DNA of 64,000 bases from Lytechinus pictus (GCF_037042905.1 NC_087250.1:18974001-19038000), one strand, 5' to 3'; shown: positions 38,126 through 63,009, numbered from the stretch's first letter. The notes: a model not told the origin generated them from the letters alone. Numbers and translations are program-made.

Positions 38126-38244
38126 GGATATTGTCACTCTGAAGTCATTTCCGAAGCTTCATTAAAAAGAATTAAGGCAGAAGTAACAAAAATCGTCCAT
38201 GAAACCATAGAGCTATTACAGAATAGCTCTATGATGAAACGGCT

Positions 38245-41200
38245 CGGTGTAAAAATGGCAGAGGTAAAAATGGCAGAGGTAAAAATGGCAAAGGTAAAAA
38301 TGGCAAAGGTAAAAATGGCAGAAGTAAAAATGGCAGAGGTAAAAATGGCAGAGGTAAAAATGGCAGAGGTAAAAATGGCAAAGGTAAAAATGACAGAGGT
38401 AAAAATGGCAAAGGTAAAAATGGCAGAGGTAAAAATGGCAGAGGTAATACTGGCAGTGTTAAAAATGGCTGAGGTAAAAATGATAACACTAGTTGGTATT
38501 TCTTATTTTTCCTGGACTTGATGCAAGACCTTCTCATGTCAAATCGCTCTTTTAATATTCAAATTTGAAGAACACTTTGAATCCCAAATATTGTACTTAA
38601 TTCATTAAAGGGGAAATTTACACTGACATACAGTTTATTAAAATGATATTGGTGAAGGTTTTAGGGAATCCATCAAAGATTTGAAAAACTACTAAAATGT
38701 TACGTTAATGGGGACGTCATTTGCGAACAGTTTTCCCCATATATGGTGTAATAAAAAATACCAATGAAATGTCATTTTCTAAAAAAATAGTTTTAATTGT
38801 ACCTTAAAGGTATTGTTTAACTTTGTGAGCAGCCGATTTAAAAAATTCTCAAACCAAGATGAAACATGTGTACAACTGCATGAACTAGAACTAATAAACC
38901 CTGAAAACAACCATTATTGAGAATGAAAAGCTAAAACTACAAGGCAAACCCCGATTTTGTTAATAGGCATCTTATAGACGCCTAAATAGTACACATAAGT
39001 GTATGGGATGAAATTAAGATGGTGTTTTCGGTCACTTTATATTTCAATTTTTGAAGCACTAAATAATTATTTTCGAACGCAATTTTTTCTGGGCTTCATT
39101 TTTATAACATATCACAGACACAGGTGACAAGTGTGACCTTCTAGCTCAGATTTTTTAAAGTCAAACCAATGTTAACCAATCACTTTAAGTATATTAACAT
39201 ACAAATAATTTCACACCCGCTCCTGAAATATTTTTTTTATTTGCAATCATGAACCACTGATTAAAAAATTGAAAAGTAGACATTTTAGTGCATAAAATAC
39301 GGGGTAGTTACTAGTATATGACGTCACAGATCATAAACTCAAACTTCCAATAACCTTATTAATTTTTTTGATGGGTTTTCCGCAAACCTCCACCTATATT
39401 TTTTTTCTGCTATTTTCACAGTAAATCATTTGTCAGTGTGAATTTTTCCTTCAAAACAGGTCAATAGAATGGTAGGCCTACCTCAGAAACAACTATAAAT
39501 TTATATCCCTGATTCGCTACACATTTCAAAATTCATGCGGTAACCGTTAACATAGGAACCTGATATCCACTTGGATTAGCTGCAATGAGGTATTACTCTG
39601 AGAAAAAAATGAACACTAGTTGATATTAAACTGTATACGTATCATATCAATATCTATTTGGATCAATTATGATGTTGAAATATGAAAAATTACTTTTATT
39701 ACAGAACGTTTTGTTATTTTTCTGTTATCCAAGTTATGCAAGTGGTTCAAAGAAATCCCAAACTCGTCTATTTCAATGTGTTAATGGTAGCGCACATTGG
39801 TGTTTATATTACAATTCGTTTGGTATGTATGTGATGAAGTGCTGTTGTACTATACGAACTGGCCAAGATAAATACTTTCATCACTCACAAAGTCAAATCA
39901 TTTTGGCATGAAAATGTTTGAGTTTACTCATATCAACGATAAAGTATAGACCTAAAATTATTAAAATATCCAAATAATATCTCATAAGTTCACAATACTC
40001 ATTTTGTCGATAGGAGTCCATTCAAGGTCAATAATTATGACTGATATTAACTGGAAAGGATCTATCTTTACTTTGACGATCTAGCATGTCATGACCTGTC
40101 ATTTCTGCCTCTGACATTTTTACCTCTGTGTCACGTGGGAAGTGACTTTTTTAAATTATTTATCTACTGCTGCTTGACGCCAAATAAGGAATACGTAAAA
40201 CTGAAGATTACAGTTAGTAAAAGATTTAATCAAAGCTCTTAAATCATTCTGTGATCTCCTTTGATTTCTTTTACAATGATTTACATGAAAATATACATGG
40301 ATATAGATAACAAAACATAACTTACTGATAATAGTTGATGTGAGCCCCAATCATCTCATCTGGCCTGACATGCCCCACTTGGCCCTGGTGGTCGGTCCAG
40401 TTCCTGGCCTCCGCAGCTTGCGATGTCTCTTCCACTCGGCCTCGGCCTCCGCAGACTGTTGCCCCTCGATGAGCAGCCCCAAGATCAGAGATGTGGCTTC
40501 AACGAATTAGTGGACGAGATCGAGCCCCCAATGATGACATGAATTTTGACGAATCATGTCGGTGGAGAACCGGTGGCAGCTGGGGTCGTTATCTCGTCAC
40601 CGACGTAGTCCCTCAGTTTTGACTTAGACTGCCTATACGAACATCTGTGGTCTATTCTAGCTTAGGTGGTTCTCCCTGAATTACCGAAATTAACCTCGTA
40701 ATATACCCTACCGTTACTAGGACTGACTGTAAGATTTCTATAAAGTAATTCAAATAATTTCAATAGCAGATGAGTGCATAAAGCAACACATTCTTAATAA
40801 CACAAGACTTCCTGTGCATCTGTACATTTACATTCTTCAATGCTAAAGCAAAGTATTAACTATTTATGACACCTGTATGAAGATGCTTAGCTAGTACGAA
40901 AATTTTGAACACTTGAACAAAATATGGCATCCACCTGATCTTGTACTGTACTCTAGGGGGGGGGGGTGGGGGTATCAAACGTTTCCAACGCTTGCTTTTG
41001 AAACATTCAAAACATATGTACATATACAATTGTCTATAGGCCTACCATAACCTCGACCAAGTAAATATTTCAAGCACATGTTTGAACTCAACTGAAAGAT
41101 TAGAATTGTATTAAATTTCTTTCCTGACACTCTGCCATTATTACCTCTGCCATTTTTACCTCTGCCATTATTACCTCTGCCATTTTTACCTCTGCCATTT

Positions 41201-41495
41201 TTACCTCAGTCTGCCATTATTACCTCTGCCATTATTACCTCTGCCATTTTTACCTCTGCCATTTTTACCTCAGTCTGCCATTATTACCTCTGCCATTATT
41301 ACCTCTGCCATTTTTACCTCTGCCATTTTTACCTCTGCCATTTCTACCTTTGCCATTTTTACCTCTGCCATTTTTACCTCTGCCATTTTTACATCAGTCT
41401 GCCATTATTACCTCTGCCATTATTACCTTAGACATTTTTACCTCTGCCATTATTACCTCTGCTATTATTACCTCTGCCATTTTTACCCGGCACCG
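38245..41495. mobile_element. MULE-like foldback element with inverted 15-bp tandem arrays and nested MITEs
   Basis: (ggtaaaaatggcaga)n at 38250-38485 and its complement at 41130-41487; ends cggtg / caccg. Nested TTAA MITEs at 38605-39434 and 38804-39188. Confidence 0.7.
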
Positions 41496-41786
41496 ATGAG
41501 GCTGACCCTCATTTCACTCCTTTAAAAATTTTGATTTCCTCTCTCTCACACATTGTGTATACCATGGGTGCATTGTTTAAGAATAAGTAGCTCTTTATTC
41601 AATATGGTGGAACTTTTTTTTCTCAAAATTATCTTTCGCTTAACCATTTGGCAGTAATGTTTATCAACCTCTGGGCGGCATTCTGTGCAAAAATGAAATT
41701 GATTTATTTATGGATGAGTGTAATATTTTATCCCTGATTTACTATCAAATATCTAAAATATGACAGATATTGTACAATTTAAATCA

Positions 41787-42341: not shown

Positions 42342-42661
42342 TAGACATATATAATAGATAGATAGATAATAGTCTCGATAAACGAATATGAATTGAACAT
42401 GCATTTTCATTATTTTTTTTTTTTCAAGTGTAATATATTTTCTTTTAATTTTATCTTCGTTTGTTTCTGTTTATAAAGAAACAGTTTTATCGGCTCTCCG
42501 CTCTGTCTCCGATGAGAAAAAAACATGACAAATTTGTATTTCCAGCGGTCGGTTGCAATGTGTGTGCTCCTCCATTTGACTTATGGCGAGTATTGACTTT
42601 TCCTTCTTTCAAACTTTCTCAAAAGTGATGAATTCAACACATTAAAAAATGATACCCCTAA

Positions 42662-43076: not shown

Positions 43077-44329
43077 AAAATAGCAGATAATAAATAGGAT
43101 TAGGAACGAGAAAAGGTGATACAAACGTTAGAAGCGCATGGAAGCAAAACGCTTTCAGATACCCAAAATGATTATTAAATCATGAATGGGGGTTTTCAGG
43201 GATTAGGCAGACCTGACACCTTGCTTGTGAAAGATCACATCATATTTTAGATTATGGACCCCATGGAAGACCAGAGTAATTTTATGTCAATAACTCTGAA
43301 ATGGGCAATCCTTTCGATTATTTTATTCTATCTATTCATTTGCAATTCATTTTGTTTATTTATATTAATGCCATGTTTGTTATGTATTTATATAATATAT
43401 ATTTTATGGGTTTTTTAATAATCGGAAAATAAATAAACAAACAAACAAGATTGTATTCTCTATTCAAGTCTAAAATCATATTTTTCTTTAAAAGATTGAA
43501 GAACCCACCAAAAAACCACCATTCTTACAAGTTTCCAAAATTCTATTTCGAGGGGGGGGGGGGTGTCGTAAGGCTTTCCCCTAAAAATCCTATTGAATAG
43601 GATAAGCTCCTACTAATTGGCAGCTCTGTTGAGGCTATTTTCTTTGAATCCCTTTTTTTCATATCATTTGTGGCTACCTTTCACACTTTACTCGATGTCT
43701 TAATGGTTTCTCAATTATTTTGACCGGATGAAACATTGAAATGCGGCATGTGCCGACCAAGAAGATTGTCAGAAGAGTAGGCTACTGACACAAATGAAAT
43801 AAAATCTGATGGCTTACGAATATTTCAGTGAAATAATAGGAATTCAAAAATGGTAGTTCTAAAAAAAGCCTTCATAAGATATATTTGACAAGCAATTCTG
43901 AAACAATCATTAGCGCATGCGTATGGGTATCTACTCTGTTATAAAATTTATCCTTATTAATAAAAGAAGTTCCTGCAGCAGAATCTCGACTCAACACCTG
44001 TAATCTTATACCAGATTGCGTAATCTTACAGGAAAATGGGATTTGGTGGATGGAATCTTACAAATTTCCTTAACAAAACACCCTTTTCCCATTTTCGAAC
44101 AGACCTGTTCTGTTAAATTGCAGAAAATTCCTGTTTTATGAATTTACAAAATGATTCTGTTATTGCTTTCTGCAAAATCTCCTTTTTTCTGTAAAATTAC
44201 GGGGTATTTAAACAGTGTAGGACCCAAGAGTTTATTATCTAGATTACCTACTTATATACAATGCTTACGGCGGAACACGTTTTGAATATATATGTTGTGC
44301 CTAATATGACATTGCATATTTTCAGGCGT

Positions 44330-44501
44330 ATGGAAAATAGAATCTATTGTATCCAACTTTTGTCCTTTTAAGGTTTTGTATTTGCTGTGCCTTACCAAAT
44401 AAATGTCGTCACTGAGAGCAATATATTGTCGCCAGTAGTCTCATCTACAGACCCGTTACCGAATCTTGGCGACCTCCCTTATACGCCAATATTTAACGAA
44501 G
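44330..44501 (+). CDS. Candidate first coding exon of the transmembrane caspase-like gene (signal-peptide-like; in-frame TAA at 44369-44371)
   Basis: Acceptor ctaat...tattttcag at 44325 and ATG at 44330, reading MENRIYCIQLLSF*GFVFAVPYQINVVTESNILSPVVSSTDPLPNLGDLPYTPIFNE. Strong donor AAG|GTATGT (phase 1). An alternative acceptor ttttaag| at 44372 skips the stop. Confidence 0.5.
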
Positions 44502-44658
44502 GTATGTGTTTAATTTCAACTATTATAATATTACCATTAGTGTAATGTTTTCTTGAATTAATTATCAGATAGAACAACATATATATAGCTTATGTTCATG
44601 TTTATGAAACAAAATGTTCTGAGGAAATTTATGCCTAAAAAAATATTTTCTTTTATGC

Positions 44659-44938
44659 ACTGGCGGATCCAAGGGGGGCACAGCCGGTCCCCCCCCCCCC
44701 CCACTTTGAGAGGCACAATTAAAATGTGTAATGTAAAAATGCCATTAAAAACACAAGTTTGCTCCCTATGAAAGTGAAGGCCATTTTTAATGCTTGTCAC
44801 CAAATTTCATCATGGACGAAGTGTCCATAATTTTTGGTTGGAATCCTTATTTTTTTTTTTTTTTTTTGGGGGGGGTTGTCAAATTTTACCTCGGGAAAAA
44901 TGTGCCCGCCCCCTTGGAAAATCCTGGATTGGCCCCTG
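44659..44938. mobile_element. MITE (ca.tggcggatcc family; relative at 20429-20642)
   Basis: Ends cactggcggatccaagggg / tcctggattggcccctg. Confidence 0.55.
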
Positions 44939-45388
44939 CTTTAGAGCCTCTTCACAACCCAATAGGAGAAAGGTGGCGAGATAGTACCGTTTGCCTTTGA
45001 AGTACACTATACTGTAACCAAATATAAAGTCTTACAATGGGCTAAAACAGAAAAAAGAATTAACGATGGATTATGTTTTTACATTTTTCAAATGATAAGG
45101 GGTATCCAACCTTTCACCTCTCCCAACATTTTTTCCCAATTGTCCTCTTGCTCCCACCTCACTTAAATTCTGTAGGGAGATCTATCTACTGGCCTATATA
45201 AATGAAATTATTGAATCAGTAACAAAATTGATTCTGACTTCATGTATATCAAAATATAAAATACTTAAGGGAGAAATAGGGTTAGGGCATTATAGGGTAT
45301 AAGGGTAAAATATGCAAGCCAAGAATACGACTATTCCTTTCTTTATTTGGATTGTATGGTAGCTAAATTTTAATCTGATATGTTTATA

Positions 45389-46132
45389 CAGTGCGTCCCA
45401 GAAAAAAAGAAACCGAGATTTATCGATGATTTATCATAACTTACAAATACAATAGACAAGTGACCTACCATTGTAAAGCTTGGAATCTCTTCTTTTATCT
45501 GAAATTACTTAAATTATTTCTCATTCACGCATGAGTGGGCAAAAATAATTTGAATAGGGGATACAAAAAATTCACTTAGCAGGTTGTATCTGGGTTTCAA
45601 AAAGAAAACCCCATTTTCAAAAAGTTCAATCTGCTCTTAAATTGATACCTCAATTACAGAAAATGGTCAAGAAATAACAAAGTTCTGGTTATTTGAAATA
45701 AAGCTTGAATTTCAATAATTTCATAAAATGAAGAGGTTTTACAGGCTAGCGTTCCGAGTCACTGGAACTCCGTTTTGTTGACGATCAGCCATTCATTAAG
45801 TCTTTTGTTAACCGTGCGATAGCTTCTGTGGGGAACCGGTGAAAACACGTTTATTTAATGAAATTATGGAAATATAAGCATTGTTTCGAGGGAACAGAAC
45901 TCTTTTACTTCTTGACCATTTTCTGTGATTAAGGTATCAAATAAAAGAGCAGATATAGAACTTTTTAGGCATGTGATTTTCTTTTTGAAATTCAGATAAC
46001 CCCCGCCAAATGGGTTTTTGGTATCCTTCAAACTGTTTTTGCTCACTCATGCGTGAATTGTCTATTGTATTTGTGATTAAGTTATGATAAATCATCGATA
46101 AATCTCGGTTTCGTTTTTTGTGGGACTCACTG
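45389..46132. mobile_element. Tc1/mariner-type MITE
   Basis: TA flanks; TIR cagtgcgtccca.aaaaaa.gaaaccgagattt; long palindromic arms. Confidence 0.85.
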
Positions 46133-46287
46133 TATAGCTAGAAAGCGAGAATAATCATGCAGATTAAACATTCATAATTTTATGCTACAATGAATAAATC
46201 AGACTATTCTTTCTTAAATGATGGTCTCAAATTTCTCCAGACTTTTAGTTCTGTTTGAAATTATAATATCGCTAATCTTTCCTACAG

Positions 46288-46355
46288 ATGCAGATAAGCA
46301 ATGGGAAAGTATGCGAACATTTCCTCGTGTTTCTTTCGATGATGAATCCGGCACG
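46288..46355 (+). CDS. Candidate extracellular exon (phase 1 to 0)
   Basis: Acceptor gctaatctttcctacag and donor ACG|GTAAAT; open frame (D)ADKQWESMRTFPRVSFDDESGT; phases fit the neighbouring exons. Confidence 0.5.
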
Positions 46356-46637
46356 GTAAATTTCAATTCGATTTCTATGAATACATATGTTTTCTGACGT
46401 ATTCCCCATTTTTTTTTTACATACATTTGCATTGTGTAATTAATTTTTGTAATGTATATAGTAGACTATTTCGCGAATATAGCGTGGACGTAAAGAATTG
46501 AACATGCCATAGCAACAGCACATTTCCCAATCTGAAATATGTGGCAGCAGTTATCCACATCTACGTCGCCAACAGGACGGTCAGGCATACTCGACATGCT
46601 CGATACGTGCCTCGTCCTGTGTCACTCTACCAACTGA

Positions 46638-47449
46638 AGGGGAAGGCGGAGTAAGTTGAGCCATATTGTTTGCCTTTTTCCTGATAGAAGTTATATGATT
46701 CATAATCTTGTGGAAACAATCACCTTGACTTAGAATTTAATTTTTGGGAAACACATTTATACCTATATATAACATTCTACCACCACACTGAAAGTCACTG
46801 TCACCTTTGAAAGAAATAGATGGCTCAAGTTTCCCTACCCATGGGATAAGTTGAGCCACAAAAACTATGTACTAAAGATATGGGATAAGAACCAGCATGA
46901 CATTTTTTTTATTTAAAGTCTTTTCACTTGCTAATTCTCTATAAATATTAACATCCTCTAAAAGTAAAACCAATGTCTTGTGAATTTGGAATTTTCTGCC
47001 TGCATATCAATGGCTTTTAAAGTCTTTTTTTTAAATATACATTACCAAATGAATTACCATGGCTCAACTCCCCCATGTTGGCTGGCTCAACCTACCCCAG
47101 TCCGGACTGGGTGCGATAATTTAGCATCCACACATTTCTTAGGCATCCATCATGTCAAAGACTATGACAAGAATGATGATCCATGCCTGGACTAACGATA
47201 TAGTTATTAAGTCCTCATTATATTTAAAGATGCATGTGGGTAAAAAGCGCTCATCTATTTCACACACTTTTTAAATACTTTTTTTTGAGAAATTTGTTTT
47301 TTTTTCCTCTCAATTTTTTTTTGTTTCAACGTTGAAAACAGTCAATATGGTGGGGTTAGGGAGTTATGCAATGGGTCATCAATATATGACACCACTCATT
47401 ATCGGCCTGGGGGTGGTGGCCCAACTTAAAGTAACCCCGCCTTCCCCTA
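46638..47449. mobile_element. pogo/Tigger-like MITE
   Basis: Ends aggggaaggcgg / ccgccttcccct, with repeated gttgagcca motifs. Confidence 0.55.
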
Positions 47450-47754
47450 CTGTGAACACAGAGCAGGCTTTGTGACGTAACTCCGTATTGATCAGTCCAC
47501 TAGTGGAGTTACAAATGGAAAAGTAGCTGTTTGTTTTTTGCTTTACACCCGATTTTCATCTTGCCTGTAATAATTCTTGACTCTAATCAGGATAGCAATT
47601 AATGAGCAACGTCCTATTATAGTCACTATTTCAATTATGGGCAAAAACTCGAATGGAGAATATTCAACTGACCAAGTTAATATTCCAAAAATGTTTTTGA
47701 TTCCAAAATACCTAGGCTCGCATATCATGCCGTACTTTTACAAACATGACACAG

Positions 47755-47923
47755 AAGCGAATCTATGAGGTTTTTCGTCATTTCTACCTTTACGATGCTT
47801 TTGTGAGAGACGTGCAGACTGGGACACGAGCAATGTTGCAGTCATGTTTTTCTCGGGAAGAGGGTCTCCAGCGAGTGACAAAAGCTTTGATTGACAGGCT
47901 CATATCTACCGGACAGATGACAG
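47755..47923 (+). CDS. Candidate extracellular exon (phase 0 to 1)
   Basis: Acceptor acacag| and donor CAG|GTACTA; KRIYEVFRHFYLYDAFVRDVQTGTRAMLQSCFSREEGLQRVTKALIDRLISTGQMT; phases fit. Confidence 0.45.
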
Positions 47924-48416
47924 GTACTAAAATTGTATTGTTCTATTTATCATTTAGAATTCAGCCCTATACCAAATGCAGACGGCCAATTATGCCTCTT
48001 CAAATTCAATCCGACCAAAGACAAAATTTAAAAAAAACTGCTCGGTAGCGACCACCTTTGGCTCTTTTCTCCCTGTTTTGATCTTAAAATATGTTTTCTT
48101 GACATAAATCTATATTTTTATGTTTGTTCTTCCATCATAATTTTCCTATCTGGAGAATTTTTTGTAGTACGCGTTTTTCTCCTGTTCTTTATTTCATGTC
48201 CCTTTTGCTAAAACCTCGGTAGGCCTATCCCCCGTACCACACGCGGAAAGGACTGAGAGTGGGGTCGTAAGTTATTGCAGAAACTTATTTTTTTAATTTT
48301 GTTTCGATAGTAATTTTTGTTTGCATTTGAAAACAATTGCAAGATAAATTTATGGACCAATGTAAAATTATCTTAAATATATAAACAGAAATATATATAT
48401 CTCTCTTAATCGGTAG

Positions 48417-48614
48417 AATCATCATCATGCTTGGTGCCCGCTTACTCATCCCCTCTCCTGCTCATCCAAGGAGCTTGCCCGCCAGAACTTGGAATCAAGT
48501 GCGACACAGTATGCGAGTTTGCTTGCAGTGATAGCAGCTACACATTGGTGGGGAGTTCTGCAATAAGATGCCAGCCAAATGGAACTCTTTCGGATAAATT
48601 TCCCCACTGTAAAG
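48417..48614 (+). CDS. Sushi/CCP domain exon
   Basis: Phase 1-1 exon of 198 nt: SSSCLVP...CPPELGIKCDTVCEFACSDSSYTLVGSSAIRCQPNGTLSDKFPHCK. It carries the CCP pattern C.F.C...Y.L.GS..I.C...G.....P.C, with L in place of the usual W. Confidence 0.85.
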
Positions 48615-49286
48615 GTGCGTGTGTGTTAGCTTGATCAATTAAGTACACTCTTATAATAGTTGGGCAAAAAATGCCCTACTCTTTAATAACCCTGGGCAAC
48701 ATACTGTCCACACTAGTATTTTAGAGCTAAATTTCCCTTGGTGGGTACAGAGGCTCGCTTATAGCGAGGGCTATTTCATATTAGACGTTGACAGAGGGGT
48801 TGACTTCCTGATTTCCTCAGCCAGTGTTCACTCCGCAAAGCTGTGGACACGTCACTGGGTTGAGTTCGGGGTCCGTGGGAACAATTGCTCTCTCAAATGT
48901 TAGCTTGGGGAAAGAAAGATTTTTTATATCGACGTCCAATCCCGTCCAATCTGGACTAGGCCATGGTCTTGAAGGGATGCAGTGCCAGGGTCGTTGAGAC
49001 TCCAAATTCTAGTCTTTTGGATCCTAAAGCCCTACTGTTTTAGAGAACCAACTTTTAAGCACACTGAATGGTTTGATGAAAAACGTATTTGTTTTCCCTT
49101 TCAAAAAAGCAAGTTATCAAACATTCCAATTCCAAATGAGTGAATTTAACCGATCAGAAATTTATTTGGGTTCATCCATCCTCTCCGTCATTGTAGGCCA
49201 ATTCTCTATCGGACACAAATCCTCAAGATTAGATCTAATGTCCGATAATTTCCATTCTTTGATTTCCTCATTATTTCATTTAACAG

Positions 49287-49664
49287 CAAATGAGGAACAT
49301 ACCACACAGGTCACCACGACAAAGACAACATCTACTCCACATCATGTTGTACACACCACTTTACCATCCACGACAACAAATAAACATTCCTCCCCGAGGA
49401 GATTTACCACAAGAACGGCGCAACCTGAAAATGGCACAACACCGGGAAGTCGCACAGGTCATACCACACCATCGACAACAGGAATGCCTTCGACGACTGG
49501 TTCATCAACTACCTCCGAAGATATTAGTACAACCACACGTTCTCCTACAAAGAAGGACCCAACGTCAAAGGCAGTACCTACCATGTCTACCAAGGCGGAT
49601 AGACCTACAGACGCGAGTTCTTCTACTGTGCCTTCTACAAGTTCTGTTCCTGGCTTGCCCCATA
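49287..49664 (+). CDS. Thr/Ser/Pro-rich mucin-like stalk exon
   Basis: Acceptor tttaacag and donor |GTAAGT; 378 nt, phase 1-1; NEEHTTQVTTTKTTSTP...SSVPGLPH. Confidence 0.85.
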
Positions 49665-49833
49665 GTAAGTCATGCGATGTTCGGAAAAAGACTATTTCTC
49701 GACCTGTTTTTCATCATATGTTTCTTCCCCCCGACGCATTATGCAAGGTATATGCCCCCCTTCCTCCCAAAATCCTGGATCCGCCCCGTCTCCATCACAA
49801 TCTCACCTCCAAAAACATTTTGGCCGACAGATC

Positions 49834-50446
49834 TTAAAGGACAAGTCCACCCCAACAAAAACTTGATTTGAATAAAAAGAGAAAAATTCAACACGAATAA
49901 CACTGAAAATTTCATCAAAATCGGATGTAAAATAAGAAAGTTATGACATTTTTAAGTTTTGCTTCATTTCACAAAACAGTTATATGCACATCTCGGTCGG
50001 TATGCAAATGAGGGAACTGATGACATCACTCACTCACTATTTCTTTTGTATTTTATTATATGAAATATGAAATATTTTTATTTTCTCATCATTGTCATGT
50101 GAAATGAAGTTTCATTCCTCCCTGAACACGTGGAATTCCATTATTTTAACATTTTGTGCTTCAGGCAAGGAGGTCCTAATCATCAAATTCGTAAAAATTG
50201 AAATACTGTATAATTCAAACAATAACAAAGAAAAGAAATAGTGAGTGAGTGACATCAACGACTCTCTCATTTGGATGTAACTGGCTCGTTCATATATAAC
50301 TATTTTGTTAAAAATAAGCGAAACTTTGAAATGTCATAACTTTCTTATTTTACATCCGATTTTGATGAAATTTTCAGCATTGTGCTTGTCTGATTTTTCT
50401 CTATTGATTCAAAGCAACATTTTTCTGAGGTGGACTTGACCTTTAA
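49834..50446. mobile_element. Kolobok-type MITE family A
   Basis: Complete, with TTAA flanks. Confidence 0.85.
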
Positions 50447-50906
50447 ACAAATGCTGAGTGAATACATTTTTCACATAAATATTTCGCATGGTATTCTGAG
50501 ATCCATTTTATCTCAGAAGAAAATATTTTATCTCCGTTAAAATAAGTGAGTTAAATATCCTTAAAATCTCTCCGAATAGGTATTCTAAAAACCATTTCAT
50601 CTTCATTTTATCTCTGTAAGACACGCCTATCTTTGAACAAATGTCCAATGAGAAACGCAGTTTTATATAGCTCTCTCATCTCATTCAACCAATGAAAATC
50701 CATTCCTTTATCAAATGCCATTGCGACATTTTGATGGGTGTCACGTGACGTATTGCATGAGGAATCTGCTGCGATATTACGATTCGTGACAGGTGACGTC
50801 ATGTATCGTCATGTGTCAGAAAGCTGTGGTAGTAATGGACGGTCAACACATAATACCACATTCTGCGACAATGATAATTTGATCGTTGGCGTTGCATTGC
50901 CGGTAG

Positions 50907-51366
50907 GGTTACACTTCGTAATTCCGAAGGTTCTTTATTCCGAAGGTTCGTAATTCCGAAACACGTAAATTGCCTATACCTCGATGTTCGTTAATCCGAA
51001 AACGTAAAAGGGTTCGTTAATCCGAACATTTGTGGCGTTATTTCGAAGGTTCGTTATTCCGAAGATTCGATAATCCGAAAACGAAATAAGGTTCGATGTT
51101 CCGAAGGTTCTTCAATCCGAAAACGAAATAAGGTTCGTTGTTCCGAAGGTTCGTTATTAGTCCGAAAACGAAATAAGGTTCGTTAATCATTTCGTTTTCG
51201 GACTAACGAACCTTCGGAATTACGAACCTCATTTCGTTTTCGGACTAACGAACCTTCGGAATTACGAACCTTATTTCGTTTTCGGATTAACGAACCTTCG
51301 GAATTACGAACCTTCGGAATTACGAACCTTCGGAAATACGAACCTTCGGAATTACGAATGTATGCG
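50907..51366. mobile_element. Same MULE-type MITE family
   Basis: 9-bp TSD tgccggtag on both sides. Confidence 0.85.
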
Positions 51367-51469
51367 TGCCGGTAGTAGCAGAACCTCTCAATGCAAAAGT
51401 TTTATTGGTTTACATTTCTTGCCTGTATTTATGTAATAACAATACGTTCCATTTGAATAGCGCAGCTAC

Positions 51470-51741
51470 TATAATTGCATATACTCTATCTACTGAGCTT
51501 GATACTTGGCATCATATCATTTACACCGGCTGTAGCTGAGGCGCCGTATTTGCGCTAAAGCATTACAGGAATAAATCCTACCGGGTACCAATTCACCTCA
51601 CCTAGGTCGAGTGCAGCACAATGTGCATGATGTGGGTATAACTAAATTTCTTGCTGAAGGAAAACAACGACATGGCTGGGATTCAACCCATGTCCCTCTG
51701 ATTGAAATACGAGAGTCGTAACCACTCGAACACGACGCCCC
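51470..51741 (-). mobile_element. tRNA-derived SINE with a CORE-like domain
   Basis: Minus-strand head ggggcgtcgtg.tcgagtggtta...gggttgaatccc, followed by ccttcagcaagaaattt. Confidence 0.65.
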
Positions 51742-51949
51742 ACATTTTTTTAAACAAATGCAAGCTGAAATAAATGTCACGCGTATTAGTATTTGAAATT
51801 AGAATGAGATAACATCACAATAATTAACCGTTAAACATATATTGTAGCCGGGTTCTTTTTAAATTCAACTGACAAAGCTCTAACAACTTGCAACACCCGC
51901 CCCCACTTAATAAATTACTTCGATCCATGTCGTTTCTTTTTTCGTTTAG

Positions 51950-52053
51950 GATTCAGTTCGTTGGCATTCATTGGTTTATTGGGAGTTCCTCTACTTCTTC
52001 TGCCAGCGATTTTCGCTATATATAAATTAGTTTTCAGGCACCGCAGGAAAAAG
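51950..52053 (+). CDS. Transmembrane exon
   Basis: Acceptor ttttttcgtttag and donor AAG|GTAACC; FSSLAFIGLLGVPLLLLPAIFAIYKLVF followed by the basic stop-transfer RHRRKK; phase 1 to 0. Confidence 0.85.
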
Positions 52054-52424
52054 GTAACCGTACAATACATTTTGAATAATTTTCTGTTAAAATGACTTTT
52101 ATTTCCTCCCCTTCTCGCTCGAAACTGATATTTTTGGTCTAACGCATTAAATTACAGTAATAACGAATGCATGCGTTGTATATGATCGGGTCCACTTAAT
52201 CCAATATGTATATGTTTGATGAAAGTATCATACTAAATAATTAGGGCTTCGATTACTGTGCAAAGAATACATGAACTGTGCTCTCATACTTATTTTTGGG
52301 ATGTGGCAATTGTAGCATTTTGGTTTTGAACATAAATGATGAAGATTATAGTATGCAGTCAGTAATGTATTTGCCGAAAAGTATTCAACTTTTTCGTCCC
52401 TTCCTCTTATTTTTTTTCTTCCAG

Positions 52425-52491
52425 ACATACACATTCCCAAACCCCAACCCCAAAACAGAACACGAAACATTGGATATCCTCCTAGTTTTGA
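52425..52491 (+). CDS. Candidate juxtamembrane cytoplasmic exon (phase 0 to 1)
   Basis: Long pyrimidine tract ending ttccag; TYTFPNPNPKTEHETLDILLVL; donor A|GTAAAT. Confidence 0.55.
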
Positions 52492-53379
52492 GTAAATTGT
52501 TTCTTCTTTTTTTCTTACGATAATTACACAACACGACACTGAAATCGAATACTGTTAATAATGTTAATGATTAGTACAATTTCCACCTTTATTTGCAGTA
52601 TTTGATACTTGATGAAACTTCGGGGAAAGATGATTTAGATGGTGAGTACATCGATGTAAAAATAAAATGGATATAGCAACAACGCACTCCTTTGAGGCCA
52701 CCGGAAACGCTAAAAAAGTATGATGGTGGTCCCCAAGTCTGCGCACCTAACGATTTGAGTTAAATTTACCATGAATTTCTTTTCATTTCACAAAATCTAA
52801 CAGTTGATAATGTTTCTTGTATTATTATGAGTGTGCCAAATATAAAAATTTGAAAGAAAAATATGATTTTCTTGGAAAAAAAACCTCGGGCAGTCATTTT
52901 CAGACTGAACAAAAAAAAATGGTGCCCTATGACTGCACACCCATTTACTTTGTACGCCCCTCGGGGATTTTGATTAGAACGGCTGCATTTTGAGACTGTC
53001 ACATGTACATGAAATGCCCCTGGTTCATTATTTTCCACCATTTTGAGTCGGAATTTTTTAAATGAATATCTGTACTGCATGTGTATAGTGTTCGTTGCGT
53101 ATCTTCTTTTACTAGAATTACGCATATGCGCAGACAAGGGGGACTGCGCAAACTTGGGGGAACTCGCCAGAATTTAACAAAAAAGGTGAAGCGCGCACAA
53201 AGTTCCACACTTTTCAGGCTGAAAATGTTCTATTTTATAATAATAAAAAAATCAGGAGAAATTCTATAATTATGAAAAGTTAAGACACAAATCATGAAGC
53301 AGGTTACTTAAAAATGATATTAAAAAATTTATGAAATGCAAAATGGTAATGAAATAAGATTTTTTTTTCTTTTATCCTC

Positions 53380-54928
53380 TTAAGGACGTTCCACAGTTAA
53401 AGTGAAATCCATGTCATTTTCACCAAACTTTGCACATAGATACTTTAGAACCTTAATATTCGAAATATGCAAAAATTAACATAGGTCCATGTGCTTGATT
53501 TTTTTCTATAGAGCTTCAAAGTTCACCCAAATTGATGTTCTTAAAGGTCAAGTCCACCTCAGAAAAATGTTGATTTTAATCAATAGAGAAAAATCAGACA
53601 AGCACAATGCTGAAAATTTCATCAAAATCGGATGTAAAATAAGAAAGTTGTGACATTTCAAAGTTTCGCTTATTTTTAACAAAATATTTATATGAACGAG
53701 CCAGTTACATCCAAATGAGAGAGTCGATGATGTCACTCACTCACTATTTCTTTTGTTTTTTATTGTTTGAATTATACAATATTTCAATTTTTACGAATTT
53801 GACGATTAGGACCTCCTAGCCTGAAGCACAACATGTTAAAATAATGGAATTCCACATGTTCAGGGAGGAATGCAACTTCATTTCACATGACAATGACGAG
53901 AAAATAAAAATATTTCATATTTCATATAATAAAATACAAAAGAAATAGTGAGTGAGTGATGTCATCAGTTCCTCATTTGCATACCGACCGAGATGTGCAT
54001 ATAACTGTTTTGTGAAATGAAGCTAAACTTAAAAATGCCATAACTTTCTTATTTTACATCCGATTTTGAAGAAATTTTCAGTGTTATGCTTGTTGAATTT
54101 TTCTCTTTTTATTCAAATCAAGTTTTTGTTGGGGTGGACTTGTCCTTTAAGAATTGCGCATTCAAAAGAATTTGGCATTTTTAGACCGCCCAAGATTACT
54201 ACAATGAGTTTAAACCTCCATTACTCATTCAAAATACATGAAAAAGTCATCAAATTTCGCAAGAGAGTTAATAATTGTATCGTTAGAATGGAGAATCTAT
54301 TAATAGTGCTATTTGTTTGCAATTTTAAGTTTAACAGCACTGTCAGTTCTTAAAAATGGCGTAAAAGATAACAAAATCCCAATCTGAAAAATGTAAAATT
54401 TCAGTAACAAAATACAAACGTACAATAAATGCTGCACTTTATTCAAAATCCATGTCATTTTCACCAAAATTTGCAGAGTTGTAGAGGAAGGTATACCTAA
54501 GAGGTAGAAACATTAAAAAATAGGGGTTCATGTGCTTGTTTTTAAACTATCAGCATTTTTATTAGAGCAAATGTGCTTTTTAAAACACCAAAAATGGGCC
54601 GAATGCTTAGTATCTATGTGAAGAAAAAATCAAAACCACTCTACCATTTATTCAAACTCGGGCTAATATTCGTGATTCTTGGCAGCACTGCAGAGTAAAG
54701 TATTTTGAAATTGTAGAGAATATTTTTTTGAATGGTCCATGGAATAATTCAATTTTTTAGCTTCATGAAATAACGCATCGGATCTGCAGTTAAAGTGCAG
54801 AAGACGAGAAAAATCAGCTCATACCCGCAGCTAATTAATACCTGTTCATCCATTGTGACGTCAGCGCGCAGAGTGTAAACTATGCGCAGATCATAATGCG
54901 CACAAACATAACTGTGGAACGTCCTTAA
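53380..54928. mobile_element. Kolobok-type element with a nested family A MITE (53541-54150)
   Basis: ttaa-ggacgttccacagtta ... taactgtggaacgtcc-ttaa. Confidence 0.85.
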
Positions 54929-54934
54929 TCGAGG

Positions 54935-56010
54935 TATTTATTCACAATAACATGTACATATATATACAAACAATAAAAAAAATCAATTCACTTCAATAAT
55001 GCAATAATTTTTTGAATATCACATTTTTTCAAAATTCCGAACTTGCTTTTTTGTTTACATAAACTTTCTAAATAAATAATCATAGTAAGCTTGAATTCAA
55101 TCCATAAAGAATTCGCATCATATCTTTTTCCTTTGAATATGCTTTTTATGTAATTTCGATAAATAACAAATTGAGCAATAACACAAAATAAATTACACAT
55201 AACATTGCTGGAACTTTGCAGATCATAACCTATGATTAATGTTTTTTCATCTATAGAAATAGTAATCTTGAAAATATAAAATACCAACCTTTCTATAATT
55301 TTCCAAAAAAATCGAACATATTTACAATACAGTATGAAATGAAAAGTGGTATCAACTTCTCCGCAAATGTTACATGAGTTGTTTTCTACTACATGCCACT
55401 TAAATAAATTGTCTCTTGAGGGTAAAATCTTGTTCAAAAATTTAAAACTAAATTGTCTAATTCTATTATCCACAATTAAATGCAACTTAAAATAAAATAC
55501 ATGGTTCCAACTAAAGGAAACTGGTAATGAAAAAAGATTAGACCAAAAAGAAACAATGCCTGGTTCTTCCGATACCTCCGAACATAATAAAGAATATATC
55601 TTTCTTGTTGGTAAATAATCTAGAGTTATTTGTTCTCCACTTTTTAATGAAATTAAGATTCGTTCACTTTTTTTTAATTCGAATGGATAATTTTCCTTAA
55701 ACAACTTATTCAACCAATAAACAGGGAAAGACTTTTTTAATTTAGCATATTCTAAATCAAATAAAAGCTGAGAAGAATAGACAGATTTATTTAAAATATT
55801 TGGTGCTAACCACTGACGATTTCTTATAACATCTTTAACCCTAATTATACCTGCATGCTTCCATTTCTTATATACCAACATACGTTTATTAAAAGTAATA
55901 TTGCTGTTATTCCAAATGATTTCATTTTCAATGTTTTTTACTCCAAATATACCAATATATCTTAACTTAGACCAGCTACAAAAAAAATCATGGTAAAAAC
56001 TAGGTATATT
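54935..56010 (-). mobile_element. 5'-truncated L1/Tx1-type LINE fragment (ORF2 C-terminus, ORF 54988-55881)
   Basis: IIWNNSNI..., W..AGI..VKD, FKFLNKILP...L.KW....CNICGEVDTTFHFILYC..V..FW (zf-RVT-like). Confidence 0.8.
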
Positions 56011-56577
56011 TGCTTATGTTATTTTGTAATGAAATAAGATAATAGATGAATAATTCGTCGGGTTTTTTTTAATAAAGAGTTTGATATCAAAATACAGAAA
56101 CAGAAAATGGAGCGAATCGAACGATAAGATATAGATATACAATCCAAAAAGTATATGATCAGTTAATAAATAAATCAGTGTAATTGATTTAAATAAATAA
56201 TAAAGAAACCGTTGAAAAGATTAAATTGGATCCCAGTTGGAGCTAAATTTTAGAAAAATGCGGTTCTAGTTACTCCAATACTTCAATTATTTTTAAAGAA
56301 AATAATCCTTTAATCCTTCCATTATCATCATACTGTAGGACCCATATAACAGAGCATAAAATCCAGTATGTCGTAATTTGAGTAATATTTTAGTACATGT
56401 AGTAATACTAGGACATGCAGAGTATTAGGCCATGTGTGTCTTTCCCTCTCTCCCTTCCTCTCTCTGTCTATCTCTCTCTCACACACACACACACACATTT
56501 TCTCGACCTTGCTCTCTCTCACACACACACACACACATACATTTAATTCTATTTTTTGTCGTGTCTTGTTCACACAG

Positions 56578-56669
56578 ACGTTCCATTTGAATGCGATGGA
56601 TACTATACCGCCCAAAAAATCAAGCAAGCCATCCTGACAGATATGTCTATAGAACTGAACCGGAAAATG
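56578..56669 (+). CDS. Candidate cytoplasmic linker exon (phase 1 to 0)
   Basis: Acceptor gtcttgttcacacag and donor ATG|GTAATT; VPFECDGYYTAQKIKQAILTDMSIELNRKM. Confidence 0.55.
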
Positions 56670-56874
56670 GTAATTGCTTTTATTTTGTATCAGATGTTTC
56701 TTTCCTGTTCTCTTATTATTATTATTATTATTGTACTTCTTCTGCTAGTTCTTCTCCTTCTCCGTATTCTATTATTGTTTTCATTATTATCATCTTTACG
56801 ATCATCATTACTATTCTTCTCCTCCTCTTCCTCCTTCTTCTTCTTCTTCTCCTTCCCCTTCTTCTTCTTCTTCC

Positions 56875-57445
56875 CCCGGGGGGGGGGGGGGGGGCACTTA
56901 CATTGACGAGTGGATACCATGCGCGACCAGAAAAACACGTAAAAAGGATGTCTTTTTCAAGAAAGGGCACGTTATGTATGTACCGTAATAAGGGTGTCAA
57001 AAACACAAAAATAATGAAAAAAGGGTATCTATTTCGCTAGGAAAGCTACGTGTTTAGGGTCAAATTTGCGGGGATGGTAAACAAAATTAAAATGTTTTAT
57101 AAAGGATGTCCTTTTTGCCCTAACACTACGTGTTTAGAGTACGATTTGCGCGAGGTGTGGAAGGTGGGGCCGTATACTAAACTAAGTGATGTGTAAAGGT
57201 AAACCCGACGACCGACGGACCCGTGACATATCGCTGTACTTGTTTAGGGGTTCATTTACAGGGAATACTTGTCAAGAGTATCGTTTTGTTTCCAATACTT
57301 GTTAAGGGTAGGGTTTTACACGCCAATACTTGATAAGGGGTGCATTTTCAGAATATGGAAAATACGTGTTTAGGGTGCTTTTCGAGACCCCGTGGTCGCG
57401 CATGGTATCCACTCGTCAATGGAAGTGGCCCCCCCCCCCCCCGGG
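56875..57445. mobile_element. MITE with CCCGGG(G)n termini
   Basis: TIR cattgacgagtggataccatgcgcgacca / tggtcgcgcatggtatccactcgtcaatg. Confidence 0.8.
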
Positions 57446-58111
57446 CTTCTTCCCCTTCTTCTTTCCCATCCTCCACCACTGAGGTCGGAGATCAGTAGCA
57501 GGGTGATGATGCATGAAGGGGTGCCCATCAGCAATCAATACATGAAATTTCATGGCATTAATCTATGAAATTGTGGTATTATTAATGACAACCTGTATGA
57601 CTGTATGGCATTTGGGATACAATGATTGAACCTGAAGTGACATTATAGCCCTTCTTCTGAAGTCGGGTTTAAGTATGGATAGACAACTGTTACATAAATT
57701 ACTAACAGTAGAGATATCATATTTCAGCTCACTTGGCTCTCAAGTTATTCATAATTGTCCAGGAAGTATAAATAGATGATTATCTTCACCATTGAAGAAT
57801 CAGGAAAGAGCACAGTAAATATAAGAAATATACAACTTAATAAAATTTTTGAGATATTGGCTTCCCATTATTTTATCATAGAGTTAGACCATGGTTTAAG
57901 TTCACCCTGACTTCAGGATACGGGCCATTGCGCCCATTTAGAGAAAGAGCGGATATTATTGATGCAATGTTAAGAAAAATAAATGAAGGGCTGGGTCTCA
58001 AATGTGTGTTTGAAATTGGTTGCACGTAGAGTTGTGTAAGGAGTTTCGGTTTAATTATTTCTGAAGTGGGGCCCTGACTGACAAAGCTAGATACTAATTG
58101 TAAAGATGAAA

Positions 58112-58690
58112 TTAAAGGGATGGTCCAGGCTGGAGATATTTATATATCAATAAATAGAGTAAAATTCACAGAAATATTGATCAAAATCGATAACAAATAA
58201 CGAAGTTATTGAATTTTAAAGATATGCATTATTCAGGTGAAACAGTTCTAGGCAGGTCTTCATGCATATTCATTAGGTGGGCTGATGATGTCATATCCCC
58301 ACTTGTTCTTTTGCATTTTATTATATGAAATTTTTCAACCAAGAACTAAAACAATTGGATTGACAACTGATTAAATGCATTAGTTATTTATTTCCGCGAC
58401 TAATTTCATCTTAATGGAGACATATCATTTACACATGTATGAAAAAATGAAACAATTATGATTTCATGTAATAACATAATAAAAAAGAAAGTGATGTGAC
58501 ATCATTAGCACACCTAATGAAAATTTATGACGATGTGCATATAATTGTTTTCACAAAATATTGATAAACTTAAAATTCAATAACTTTGCTAGTTGTTATC
58601 TGATTTTGATGAAATTTTCAGCATTTTGCTTTGTGAATTTTACTCTATTTATTTAGATATAATTATTTTCAGCCCGGACCATCCCTCTAA
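58112..58690. mobile_element. Kolobok-type MITE
   Basis: ttaa-agggatggtcc.ggctg ... cagcccggaccatccct-ctaa. Confidence 0.75.
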
Positions 58691-58845
58691 AATGTCGAAA
58701 ACGCATTGCACACGGTAATAGAAAATAGGTGTCAAAATATAACAGATAATGTTAGGTGATTGTTTGTAATTTCTGTGGTTTATTTGATGATTTTTTTCAA
58801 CTTCTGGTACCTTCTGGTCTCTTATTACATCATACTATCTTTTAG

Positions 58846-59019
58846 TGCTACGCCATGGACAAACCAGACAAGGGAGTTGCTTTCATCTTGAACAACTACA
58901 TATTTGATACCTACAGAGCGAGTGAAAGGAAGGGATCTCATATTGATTTGGTCAATGTGAGGCATGTCTTTAAGGAGATTGGATATGCCCCTGAAGAAGC
59001 TCAAAATCTAACTGCTGAG
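58846..59019 (+). CDS. Caspase (peptidase C14A) p20 N-terminal exon
   Basis: Phase 0-0 exon CYAMDKPDKGVAFILNNYIFDTYRASERKGSHIDLVNVRHVFKEIGYAPEEAQNLTAE, matching the caspase pattern Y.M...P.G...I.NN..F......R.GS..D......F...G......NLT. The catalytic His/Cys exons were not seen in the window. Confidence 0.85.
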
Positions 59020-60523: not shown

Positions 60524-63007
60524 AGCCCTGGTCACAAGCCGCCGTACGGTTTTTTTGGCCGTACGTTTTTGGGGGGAGGCTACGGTCGCTGCGTTTTTCT
60601 GAAAACGTAAGGAAAAGAGGCGAACGCAGGGAGCAAGTGCATCGACGCACGTCACTCGTACGACTATGCAAGGTGTAAGTACGTAGTGCGTGCGCTGCCC
60701 GCGTGTCACGCCTTGCAGTGAGCGATTGCGTGCAATGTACGTCGCGCACGTGTGGAGTGAGTTGTACCTGCTTACAACGTACGATCTCCGTGCGTTCGAC
60801 ACATTTTGGAATGGAGGCCGTACTTACACGTGCTGCTCACGTACGCCGTCCTTACTTACGCGCAGGTTGCAACTGCATGCACTTGCGATGAACGTAAGCC
60901 CCCCCCCCCATGTGGTGGGGTATATTTATAGAGATTGATCTTCTGACGTCCTTCAAAATGTCGCCTCTTCTACCACAGAGACTCCAAATACTTCTGATAC
61001 TGCAAGAGCAGCTTCAAGTGGCAGGGCATGAGCAAGACGTGGGACCTTTATAAACATCGATAACTTGGACGGCAAATATTACTTGACGTGTTATAAACAA
61101 TGATTTCATTCGCTACTTCTAACTCCTTAATATTGTAATAAAGAATATTGACAGTTTTGAAGCAATCCTTCTTGAATAGAAAAGGTCCATGTACTATTAG
61201 AAAGGTTTGGGCAAAACTAACTGCAATTATAATGCCAATCAAAACTTATATTCTCCATTATGGGGAGGGGGATTGCCTTTCCTTTTAGAAAAAAGAAGGA
61301 ATTGTCTTTACGTGTGATTACACATATTGACTATATATCAATGGTGTAGATACTTTCAATGTTTCAGGAGTCGCCGCGCCTTGGAACCTGGCCTGAAACT
61401 CGCCATCACTCTTCGCTTTTTTGGCAACGGGAAGCAGGTCCCTTGCATATGACTTCCGGGTGGCACACAATAGTATATCCATGTTCGTACCGGAAGTTTG
61501 CACCGCCCTATACGAGGAATATAAGGAGATAGATGCGCACCATGCCCTCTACCCAGGACGAGTGGATCGCTCTTATAAGTGGTTCTGCTCTGTGGTGCTC
61601 ATGGCAATCGTGGATTCTAACTATTCCTTCTTGTGGTGCAATATTGGGGTCAACGGCTCCTCTTCAGATGCAGGCGTGTTCAACCAGTCCACGTTTTGGG
61701 GAGCATTCCGGGAGCACTTGAGGGAACCACCATTGGATTTCCACCACCGGATCCACTGCCAGGTGACGACCAGAATTTTCCTAATTTCCTAGTGGGCGAC
61801 GACGCGTTTCCCCTTCGAAAGTGGCTGATGAAGCCATATTGTCGCCATGCCCTGATACACAAAGAGAGGGTAATGAACTAGCGGACCTCTCGGGCTCGTC
61901 GTGTCGTAGAGAACGGTTTCGGGATATTGGCTCATCGATGGCGATGTCTCTTGACTACCTTGCAGATGGAGCCTAACAACAGAATTTGCGTCCTGTTGGG
62001 TTGTATCATCCTTCACAATTTGCTTCGAAACACCGGCTCGGACAAACTGACGTGAATGTGGACCGTGAGGATGCGGATGGCAAGGTAATCTCCGGGGCCT
62101 GGAGGAATGATGTACAGATGACCGAACCCGACCAGATGGTCGGCCAACGGGCCGCGAGGGAAGGAAAACCCCTAAGGAACTACTTCGCGAACTATTACAG
62201 TTCCCCGCTCGGACGAATACCATGGCAGGATCTCGTTGTGTGAACGCAGGAACTCGTAATAAGCATTATTTCATTTCATAGAAATCTATGAAAAAGAATT
62301 TTTTTTTAATTCTTGTTTTTATTTTATTTGGCGGACTAATACGGTTTCCCACTGTCTTTGTTTGAACTCATGATACACGATTCGATTTCATTTGTTTACA
62401 TTCTACAACCTCTTCAAGCACTCATGATAACAAATTTTGGACATAGTTCATGAAATTCATGTATTATGTAGTGTGTGAATAAATAAGAATAAGGTCATTA
62501 TGTGGAACATGGTAATAAAATATGACTTTGTGTTTTCTTGTTTATATATGAGCACAACGTGCGTTGTAAGTGCTGATCACATGCTTACTCCGCACGTGCA
62601 CGTGAGTTCTTCACGTTCATTTGAATAATTAGATTGGGAAAGTGCCGAGTAAGCACGGGCCACGCAATTATCCGTGCGGCAACGCGCACTTGCTAAGTGC
62701 ACCTTCGGTACAGGAAGTGGCCGCGGCGAATATCTAAAAAGTCTCACGGAGTCGGTGCGTTGTGCGTACTTTGGCAGTACCGAGGGCGTGCGTGCGCGCA
62801 CGTGGGGCAAATCCGTAGCTCGAACGTAGCCTGCACGCAGCGAAAGTTCCTCCTGCACTAAAAGTTCTGCGTCGTGTCTGCGCACTGCCAAATCCGTACC
62901 GAGTCGGTACTCATCACGTGCGTGACGTACGAATTTCCCGATTTTTGCCCACGTTTTCGCACGTAGACTGCGCGCACGTGCAAGTACGACGGGATGTGAA
63001 CACAGCT
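60524..63007 (+). mobile_element. Decayed PIF/Harbinger DNA transposon
   Basis: Imperfect TIRs agccctggtcaca / tgtgaacacagct, flanks GTA/TTA (TWA-type TSD with one change), GC-rich subterminal regions and a transposase remnant. Confidence 0.85.
61364..62243 (+). pseudogene. Harbinger DDE transposase (HARBI1-like) pseudogene
   Basis: LAITLRFLATG; YK.F.SVVLMAIVD...GSSSDAGVF; FLVGDDAFPL..WLMKPY; RARRVVENGFGILA.RWR. Interrupted by frameshifts, a stop and deletions. Confidence 0.88.
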
Positions 63008-63009
63008 TT

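Follow-up and report, generated by a model that had tools for sequence, protein, structure and literature searches.

Can a caspase be built directly into a membrane receptor? In textbook accounts, caspases are soluble enzymes of the cytosol and depend on adaptor platforms (the death-inducing signaling complex [DISC], the apoptosome, and the inflammasome) to bring them together. A 64,000-nucleotide stretch of genomic DNA from the sea urchin Lytechinus pictus (C6:18974001-19038000, in an 812-Mb assembly; referred to here as the window, with positions counted from its first nucleotide) raises this question, as its gene LOC129263184 very probably encodes a single protein in which a sushi-like module and a transmembrane (TM) helix are fused to a caspase. 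Judged from gene models and protein comparisons, the fused architecture is probably real, conserved, and undescribed. As the best explanation of the whole, we lean, by a modest degree, toward a single-pass type I membrane receptor-caspase that would be activated by proximity without any adaptor.

The exon at positions 58846 to 59019 is 100% identical to isoform X2 of LOC129263184 (P0002; 666 amino acids [aa]), an "uncharacterized protein" of L. pictus, and isoform X1 (P0019; 737 aa, four RefSeq accessions) falls into the 90%-identity cluster of P0002. Isoform X1 is reproduced letter for letter by translating 14 plus-strand exons, 10 of which lie inside the window. Exon 1 (42525 to 42585) carries the start codon and the hydrophobic core of the signal peptide and ends in a GC donor, exon 2 (44373 to 44501) completes the signal peptide and starts the ectodomain, and exon 3 (46288 to 46355), also ectodomain, contains the start Met of isoform X2. 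These are followed by an N-terminal domain of about 70 aa (N-domain) in exon 4 (47716 to 47923), the sushi/CCP-like module in exon 5 (48417 to 48614), a Ser/Thr/Pro-rich, mucin-like stalk in exon 6 (49287 to 49664), and the TM helix and an adjoining RHRRKK patch in exon 7 (51950 to 52053), which ends in phase 0 at a GT donor. Exon 8 (52599 to 52641) encodes a juxtamembrane linker with a conserved Y..LD motif, exon 9 (56578 to 56669) encodes the linker with a conserved D-G-Y motif that precedes the caspase domain, and exon 10 (58846 to 59019) encodes the start of the caspase large subunit. The remainder of the caspase is encoded just past the window end by exons 11 to 14 (64045-64261, 65269-65523, 67560-67669, and 68119-68292). 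All 14 exons were placed by exact mapping of P0019; the content of exon 5 is further supported by a Pfam Sushi match and a fold match, that of exon 6 by composition, that of exon 7 by hydropathy, and that of exon 10 by a Pfam Peptidase_C14 match. The introns are of the GT-AG type in 12 of 13 cases, intron 1 having a GC donor (GCGAGT, at 42585/42586), a slight hint that exon 1 was placed from transcript alignments. The acceptor of exon 2 (...TTTTAAG, directly before the exon) is kept in a paralogous copy at C6:19091529.

Introns 8 and 10 hold transposon-derived open frames at 54988-56013 (minus strand), 61397-61881 (plus strand), and 62926-63363 (plus strand), comprising a reverse-transcriptase zinc-binding (zf-RVT) tail, a DDE_Tnp_4 (Harbinger-type) fragment, and a GIY-YIG fragment.

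An initial annotation of the window had proposed a chain of nine exons leading from a sushi module through a mucin-like stalk and a TM helix to a fused caspase. This architecture matches the gene model and recurs in three paralogues and four other urchin species. The proposed GT/AG ends are present and the summed length (1,422 nucleotides) is in frame, with one in-frame stop inside the first exon; six of the nine exons (i.e., 46288-46355, 48417-48614, 49287-49664, 51950-52053, 56578-56669, and 58846-59019) agree exactly with P0019. Two others kept only their donors. The proposed exon 44330-44501 was to start at an ATG that runs into a TAA at 44369-44371 and is replaced by ATT at the same place in the paralogous copy with the conserved acceptor; this start is therefore rejected, and the acceptor lies at 44373. 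The acceptor proposed at 47755 belongs at 47716, and the 13 residues thus gained are conserved in orthologues. The proposed exon 52425-52491 is wrong, the conserved exon of the same phase being 52599-52641. Exon 1 had no counterpart in the proposed chain. A candidate signal exon at 44151-44190, obtained by a sequence scan, was dropped, as the RefSeq protein matches 42525-42585 instead. Pfam recognized Sushi (1.9e-5; 25.4 bits) and Peptidase_C14 (3.6e-6) in the exons as first proposed. Direct splicing from the TM exon to the caspase exon would be in frame, as had been claimed, since exon 7 ends and exon 10 starts in phase 0, and the motifs predicted to lie downstream (SHG and QACRG) do occur there, in the exon whose start is 45 bases beyond the end of the window.

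The topology of P0019, whose residue numbers are used below, was judged by simple hydropathy scans and structure prediction. Residues 1 to about 25 form a hydrophobic, signal-like N terminus (within the first 40 residues, the highest 10-residue Kyte-Doolittle score is 2.21), and the sole strongly hydrophobic internal segment spans residues 353 to 371 (19-residue score, 2.5), with RHRRKK next to it. The AlphaFold model of the full-length protein places a helix at residues 350 to 379. A hydrophobic N terminus was found in all 10 full-length membrane forms checked and in neither of the 2 soluble forms checked. Eight ectodomain Cys residues are conserved in the sushi-bearing forms, namely, C91 in the N-domain and seven within residues 160 to 220 (invariant in nine of nine sequences), and the N-domains of all four soluble forms have no Cys. 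Given the conserved ectodomain Cys residues, the signal-like N terminus, and the basic patch after the TM helix, the protein fits a predicted type I, single-pass topology with the N terminus outside and the caspase inside the cell. Mean predicted local distance difference test (pLDDT) scores were 55 for the full-length model, in which disorder is predicted for the stalk, linker, and intersubunit linker, the caspase fold is modeled with confidence, and the ectodomain is folded, and 81 for a 163-aa orthologous fragment comprising the N-domain and sushi part.

Within the ectodomain, the N-domain (residues 87 to 155) is predicted to consist of four beta strands and a helix (pLDDT of about 85 to 91 over most of its length). 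No Pfam family was found for it in any of 20 proteins scanned, and the ESM Atlas gave no usable match. A fold search returned a mixture of middling matches, including double-stranded RNA-binding domains (Z scores of 6.0 to 6.8), a shrimp anti-lipopolysaccharide factor (Z = 6.3), and profilin (Z = 5.9); we claim no fold assignment, as these scores fall in the range of common arrangements. The sushi-like module (residues 160 to 220) is all-beta in the AlphaFold model and matches the CCP modules of CD46, CR2, factor B, and factor H (Z scores of 7.4 to 8.1, root mean square deviations of 1.8 to 2.6 Å over 61 to 64 residues, and 22 to 26% identity). Against PF00084, the sushi exon exceeds the cut-off (25.4 versus 20.7 bits), and the whole protein, at 19.6 bits, falls just below it. 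The sushi/CCP consensus comprises four conserved Cys residues and a conserved Trp; the module has seven invariant Cys residues instead of the usual four, and no Trp was seen in it. The stalk (residues 222 to 347) contains 57 Ser and Thr residues and 14 Pro residues among its 126 residues and is predicted to be disordered (pLDDT of about 30). On the cytosolic side, the linker (residues 383 to 427) has eight residues that are invariant in nine of nine sushi-family sequences (Y383, L386, D387, D403, G404, Y406, A414, and T417), and its D-G-Y motif also occurs in soluble and other membrane-bound relatives.

The caspase domain (residues 428 to 737) carries SHG at residue 511 and QACRG at residue 553 and matches PF00656 (Peptidase_C14) over residues 436 to 709 (9.2e-48). 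Its best match among solved structures is human caspase-3 (E value, 2.5e-29), and caspase-6 is also among the closest solved relatives. H512 and C555, invariant in nine of nine family members, align with the catalytic dyad of caspase-3, and R455, Q553, and the Arg of a small-subunit ...SLR... motif align with its pocket residues, which we take to be those of the Asp-specific S1 pocket. The predicted enzyme thus looks catalytically competent and caspase-3-like. The domain carries a clade-specific C-terminal motif, and its intersubunit linker, of about 70 aa and predicted to be disordered, is unusually long. At least 90% of 22 sequences retain D625, the Asp before the small subunit (x-E/D-T/I-D, followed by G), and C428 and Y429, which lie upstream of the only candidate internal start Met, are invariant (nine of nine). 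The effector caspases-3, -6, and -7 (C14A) share with LOC129263184 the His of SHG, the Cys of QACRG, and the Arg/Gln/Arg of the pocket. They are soluble enzymes in which both the prodomain and the intersubunit linker are short; LOC129263184 differs from them in its about 430 residues ahead of the caspase domain (including the signal peptide, ectodomain, and TM helix), its intersubunit linker of about 70 aa, and its C-terminal motif. No CARD, DED, or Death domain was found by Pfam in any of 11 family proteins (E ≤ 0.01) or in 9 further relatives (E ≤ 1), and Pfam found no TNFR cysteine-rich repeats in family proteins.

In L. pictus, the same exon order is found at three colinear loci, namely, a pair separated by about 98 kb on C6 and a single copy on C2. 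The tandem copy (P0018), downstream of the window gene, is 95% identical to it; its model begins at an internal Met and has no signal peptide. At C6:19091529-19091757, about 23 kb upstream of the point where the annotated exons of the tandem copy begin, lies a segment 91% identical to exon 2, which may be the missing 5' exon of that copy; the similarity of this segment to the window starts at window position 44213. The C2 paralogue (P0021) is 54 to 55% identical to the window gene; each has 14 homologous exons, and the phases are identical at all 13 introns. Fused full-length models are also found in L. variegatus (P0005 and P0024), Strongylocentrotus purpuratus (P0007), Diadema antillarum (P0011, P0012, and P0014), and D. 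setosum (P0013), and 10 of 15 matches in a protein search cover at least 86% of the query, these four species being among them. Pfam detected Peptidase_C14 in all 11 and Sushi in 8 of the 11 family proteins scanned. The Diadema proteins have several sushi repeats (two to three by Pfam, with further Cys-rich repeat blocks visible in the alignment).

Ratios of nonsynonymous to synonymous substitution rates (dN/dS) between the window and C2 genes were 0.15 for the N-domain, 0.13 for the sushi part, 0.34 for the TM part, 0.41 for the linker, 0.17 for the caspase large subunit, and 0.09 for the small subunit; these ratios are rough, as dS is about 1 or more and near saturation. Values below 1 in every part indicate purifying selection on both sides of the membrane. 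Between the window gene and its tandem copy, the cytosolic dN/dS was 0.67, from just 31 differences, too few for a selection test. A tree of 28 caspase domains supported a camarodont sushi-TM group (96/99) and a Diadema sushi-TM group (100/99); the forks joining these two groups were not supported, and the outgroups lay on long branches. The window gene and its tandem copy form a pair (100/99) that then joins L. variegatus P0024 (100/100), placing the tandem duplication in L. pictus specifically. The split between the C6 and C2 lineages is evidently older than that between the two Lytechinus species.

A profile search over 1.84 billion representative proteins, followed by look-ups of individual relatives, revealed other layouts built on the same caspase type. 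The N-domain, a PD.DG.Y linker, and this caspase occur in soluble proteins without a TM helix (L. variegatus P0041 and Diadema P0034, P0180, and P0181); in proteins in which a signal peptide and a single TM helix accompany an acidic ectodomain of a different kind (L. pictus P0048/P0182 and Diadema P0032, P0178, and P0179); and in a protein with three spans from the sea star Patiria miniata (P0046). A further L. pictus protein (P0028) has an N-terminal anchor of two or more spans and neither N-domain nor ectodomain. Since the N-domain travels with the linker and caspase in other proteins, we regard it, on these comparisons, as a regular N-terminal part of this caspase clade; in the window gene, it can be joined to its caspase only via the TM exon. 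Two Diadema proteins (P0027 of D. antillarum and P0173 of D. setosum) retain the layout (N-domain, sushi modules, of which there are two, TM helix, and caspase fold) but have lost both SHG and QACxG, and these may be natural membrane decoys for the active forms. They resemble c-FLIP, the dead homologue of caspase-8. LOC129263184 differs in that it keeps both the catalytic His and the catalytic Cys, and a c-FLIP-like decoy role, which the initial annotation had held open, is rejected for it.

How might such a protein work? According to the sequence and the gene models, the predicted extracellular side comprises a signal peptide, a small disulfide-bearing N-domain, one sushi-like module, and a Ser/Thr/Pro stalk of the O-glycosylation type, and the predicted cytosolic side comprises a basic stop-transfer patch, a conserved 45-residue linker, and a complete, catalytically equipped caspase-3-like domain. 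Ligand binding would draw two or more chains together, as might homotypic contact via the N-domain and sushi part, and the caspase domains so clustered in the cytosol would dimerize and cut themselves at D625, with further self-cuts possible at the conserved linker residues D387 and D403. The freed active caspase would then leave the membrane and cleave cytosolic substrates, leading to cell death or an immune response. The long, disordered intersubunit linker and these Asp residues underlie the reading as a proximity-activated, self-processing caspase; we infer that ligand-driven clustering with self-activation is plausible.

Several observations weigh against this interpretation, both as to the reality of the fused gene and as to its function. 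All relatives are automatic RefSeq models from one pipeline. An older release split the C2 gene into a "mucin-2-like" protein (P0023), which runs past the linker exon and ends within the following intron, and a "caspase-3-like" protein (P0022), which starts at the Met of the first caspase exon. Caspase-only models exist in L. pictus (P0003) and L. variegatus (P0004), and these two were the only ones among 114 candidates to be returned when short proteins bridging TM helix, linker, and caspase, such as transcript assemblies might supply, were sought. The fused L. variegatus model P0024 (LOC121417581) continues C-terminally into a Phospho_p8 domain matching the sea urchin transcription factor p8, probably an annotation read-through of two genes. 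The split models, the caspase-only models, and this example of read-through fusion in the region are what would be expected if a neighboring sushi-mucin membrane gene and a short-prodomain caspase-3-like gene had been joined by the predictor or by rare read-through. We consider such an artefact improbable, as it would require accidental fusion at three loci and in four other species, with the same phases and no stop. The co-occurrence of N-domain, linker, and caspase in soluble proteins, where there is no membrane gene to merge with, also speaks against a merged two-gene model, as do the two invariant residues (C428 and Y429) upstream of the Met at which a caspase-only protein could start, the absence of any Met from the linker of the orthologue P0005, and the purifying selection on the linker (dN/dS, 0.41). 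Moreover, when the window copy is read on beyond its final linker exon, the frame stays open for about 80 codons, into a simple repeat, instead of meeting a nearby stop. It could also be that the fusion family is real but that the window copy, a recent C6 tandem duplicate, is decaying or is mostly expressed without a signal peptide and is not a surface receptor. Isoform X2 has no signal peptide and, like the tandem model P0018, starts at an internal Met; the noncanonical GC donor of intron 1, the transposon-derived open frames in introns 8 and 10, and the cytosolic dN/dS of 0.67 against the tandem copy (31 differences only) point the same way. This is more improbable still, however, in that all 14 exons are intact, every catalytic residue is present, isoform X1 with its signal peptide stands under four RefSeq accessions, and the two C6 copies differ too little for a selection test.

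As to function, the caspase domain is most like the effector caspases (caspase-3 and -6), and effector caspases are activated by upstream cleavage, not by dimerization. The N-domain would be cytosolic in the soluble relatives and extracellular here, which is unusual; the ESM Atlas, fold, and Pfam searches identified no fold relative or ligand for it; and D403, one of the proposed linker cleavage sites, is replaced by N or Q in two other subfamilies. The main rival to the receptor-caspase reading accepts the fusion and takes the protein to be a membrane-tethered executioner zymogen at the plasma membrane or an organelle membrane, cut in trans at the conserved Asp sites by upstream initiator caspases, with an ectodomain that serves sorting, adhesion, or stability. 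The closest solved relatives, caspases-3 and -6, suit this reading, RefSeq names the relatives caspase-3-, -6-, and -7-like, and the conserved D625 could equally be a site for another caspase. The varied anchors, with two or more spans and no ectodomain in P0028 and three spans in P0046, suggest that anchoring itself is the selected trait. Against a mere tether stand the purifying selection on the ectodomain, which is as strong as that on the caspase (dN/dS of 0.13 to 0.15), the presence of a recognition-type CCP module that has been multiplied in Diadema, and the disordered intersubunit linker of about 70 residues. Long intersubunit linkers are typical of initiators activated by dimerization, not of effectors. 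On balance, the tethered zymogen appears rather unlikely, although less so than either an annotation artefact or a decaying copy.

A broader extension of the receptor-caspase reading is tentative and, taken as a whole, doubtful. Echinoderms might possess an entire class of single-chain receptor-caspases forming an adaptor-free extrinsic death or immune pathway. In such a scheme, an ancestral cytosolic caspase with an N-terminal oligomerization domain would have been turned inside out when it acquired, by insertion, a signal peptide and a TM helix, and its former activation domain would now sense the outside; the sushi modules of urchins, the other ectodomains of paralogues, the multispan anchors of sea stars, and the dead decoy of Diadema would be its variants.

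Among known systems, the death receptor/FADD/caspase-8 pathway (DISC) would share the proposed logic, in which an event outside the cell clusters caspase domains on the cytosolic face of the membrane, from which they free themselves by self-cleavage. The difference is that receptor, adaptor, and protease would here form one chain, in which Pfam finds no TNFR repeats, death domain, DED, or CARD. GPI8/PIGK has a lumenal protease domain, belongs to family C13 and not C14, and sits in a fixed complex of the endoplasmic reticulum, whereas the caspase of LOC129263184 is predicted to be cytosolic and belongs to family C14. A likeness nevertheless exists, as in this clan CD subunit of the glycosylphosphatidylinositol transamidase a cysteine protease of caspase fold likewise forms part of a type I, single-pass membrane protein. 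A literature search for TM helices combined with caspase-like domains led only to this subunit (PMC12786357). Lineage-specific caspase expansions with DED, DD, and CARD in new combinations are described for amphioxus and sea urchin in the available parts of two papers (PMC3196919; PMC2246300). These domain-shuffled caspases likewise carry novel N-terminal parts in invertebrate deuterostomes. The difference is that theirs are cytosolic death-fold prodomains, and the word "transmembrane" is absent from both texts.

We found no description of a membrane-spanning caspase in the literature, although the S. purpuratus apoptosis-gene survey (Robertson et al. 2006) could contain one. The available parts of PMC2779465, PMC3196919, PMC13736523, PMC6394757, and PMC2246300 make no mention of one, and literature searches with the phrase "transmembrane caspase" and with gene and protein identifiers of the LOC129263184 family found neither. 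The initial annotation mentioned reports of echinoderm caspases with extracellular modules; this was not confirmed, as none was found in the literature. This receptor-like caspase family of sea urchins has apparently never been studied. If the receptor-caspase reading is true, no simpler switch for extrinsic death or immunity would be possible than this single chain, in which extracellular recognition, membrane anchoring, and a competent caspase are united; it would parallel, in nature, the dimerizable caspases made by engineering and would allow induced-proximity activation to be tested in a one-component system. The conservation of the layout across distant urchins (Lytechinus, Strongylocentrotus, and Diadema), the sister anchor families, including that of a sea star, and the dead Diadema homologue suggest a functioning, regulated system. 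The genes offer a concrete family for research on sea urchin immunology and developmental cell death.

Elsewhere in the window, two blocks of short tandem repeats (38108-38558 and 41096-41525) can be read through at length in several frames on either strand (e.g., as repeated MAEVK units) and hint at no function. An apparently intact non-long-terminal-repeat retrotransposon occupies 27202-32199 on the minus strand. Its 1,233-aa open frame contains endonuclease, reverse transcriptase, and RNase H domains; immediately ahead of it, and in frame with it, lies an open frame of 431 aa without a Pfam match. A partial second copy of the 3' end of this element lies at 26564-26941, also on the minus strand. 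The guanine-plus-cytosine content of the window is mostly 33 to 39% and reaches 43 to 46% in the last 4 kb (60 to 64 kb).

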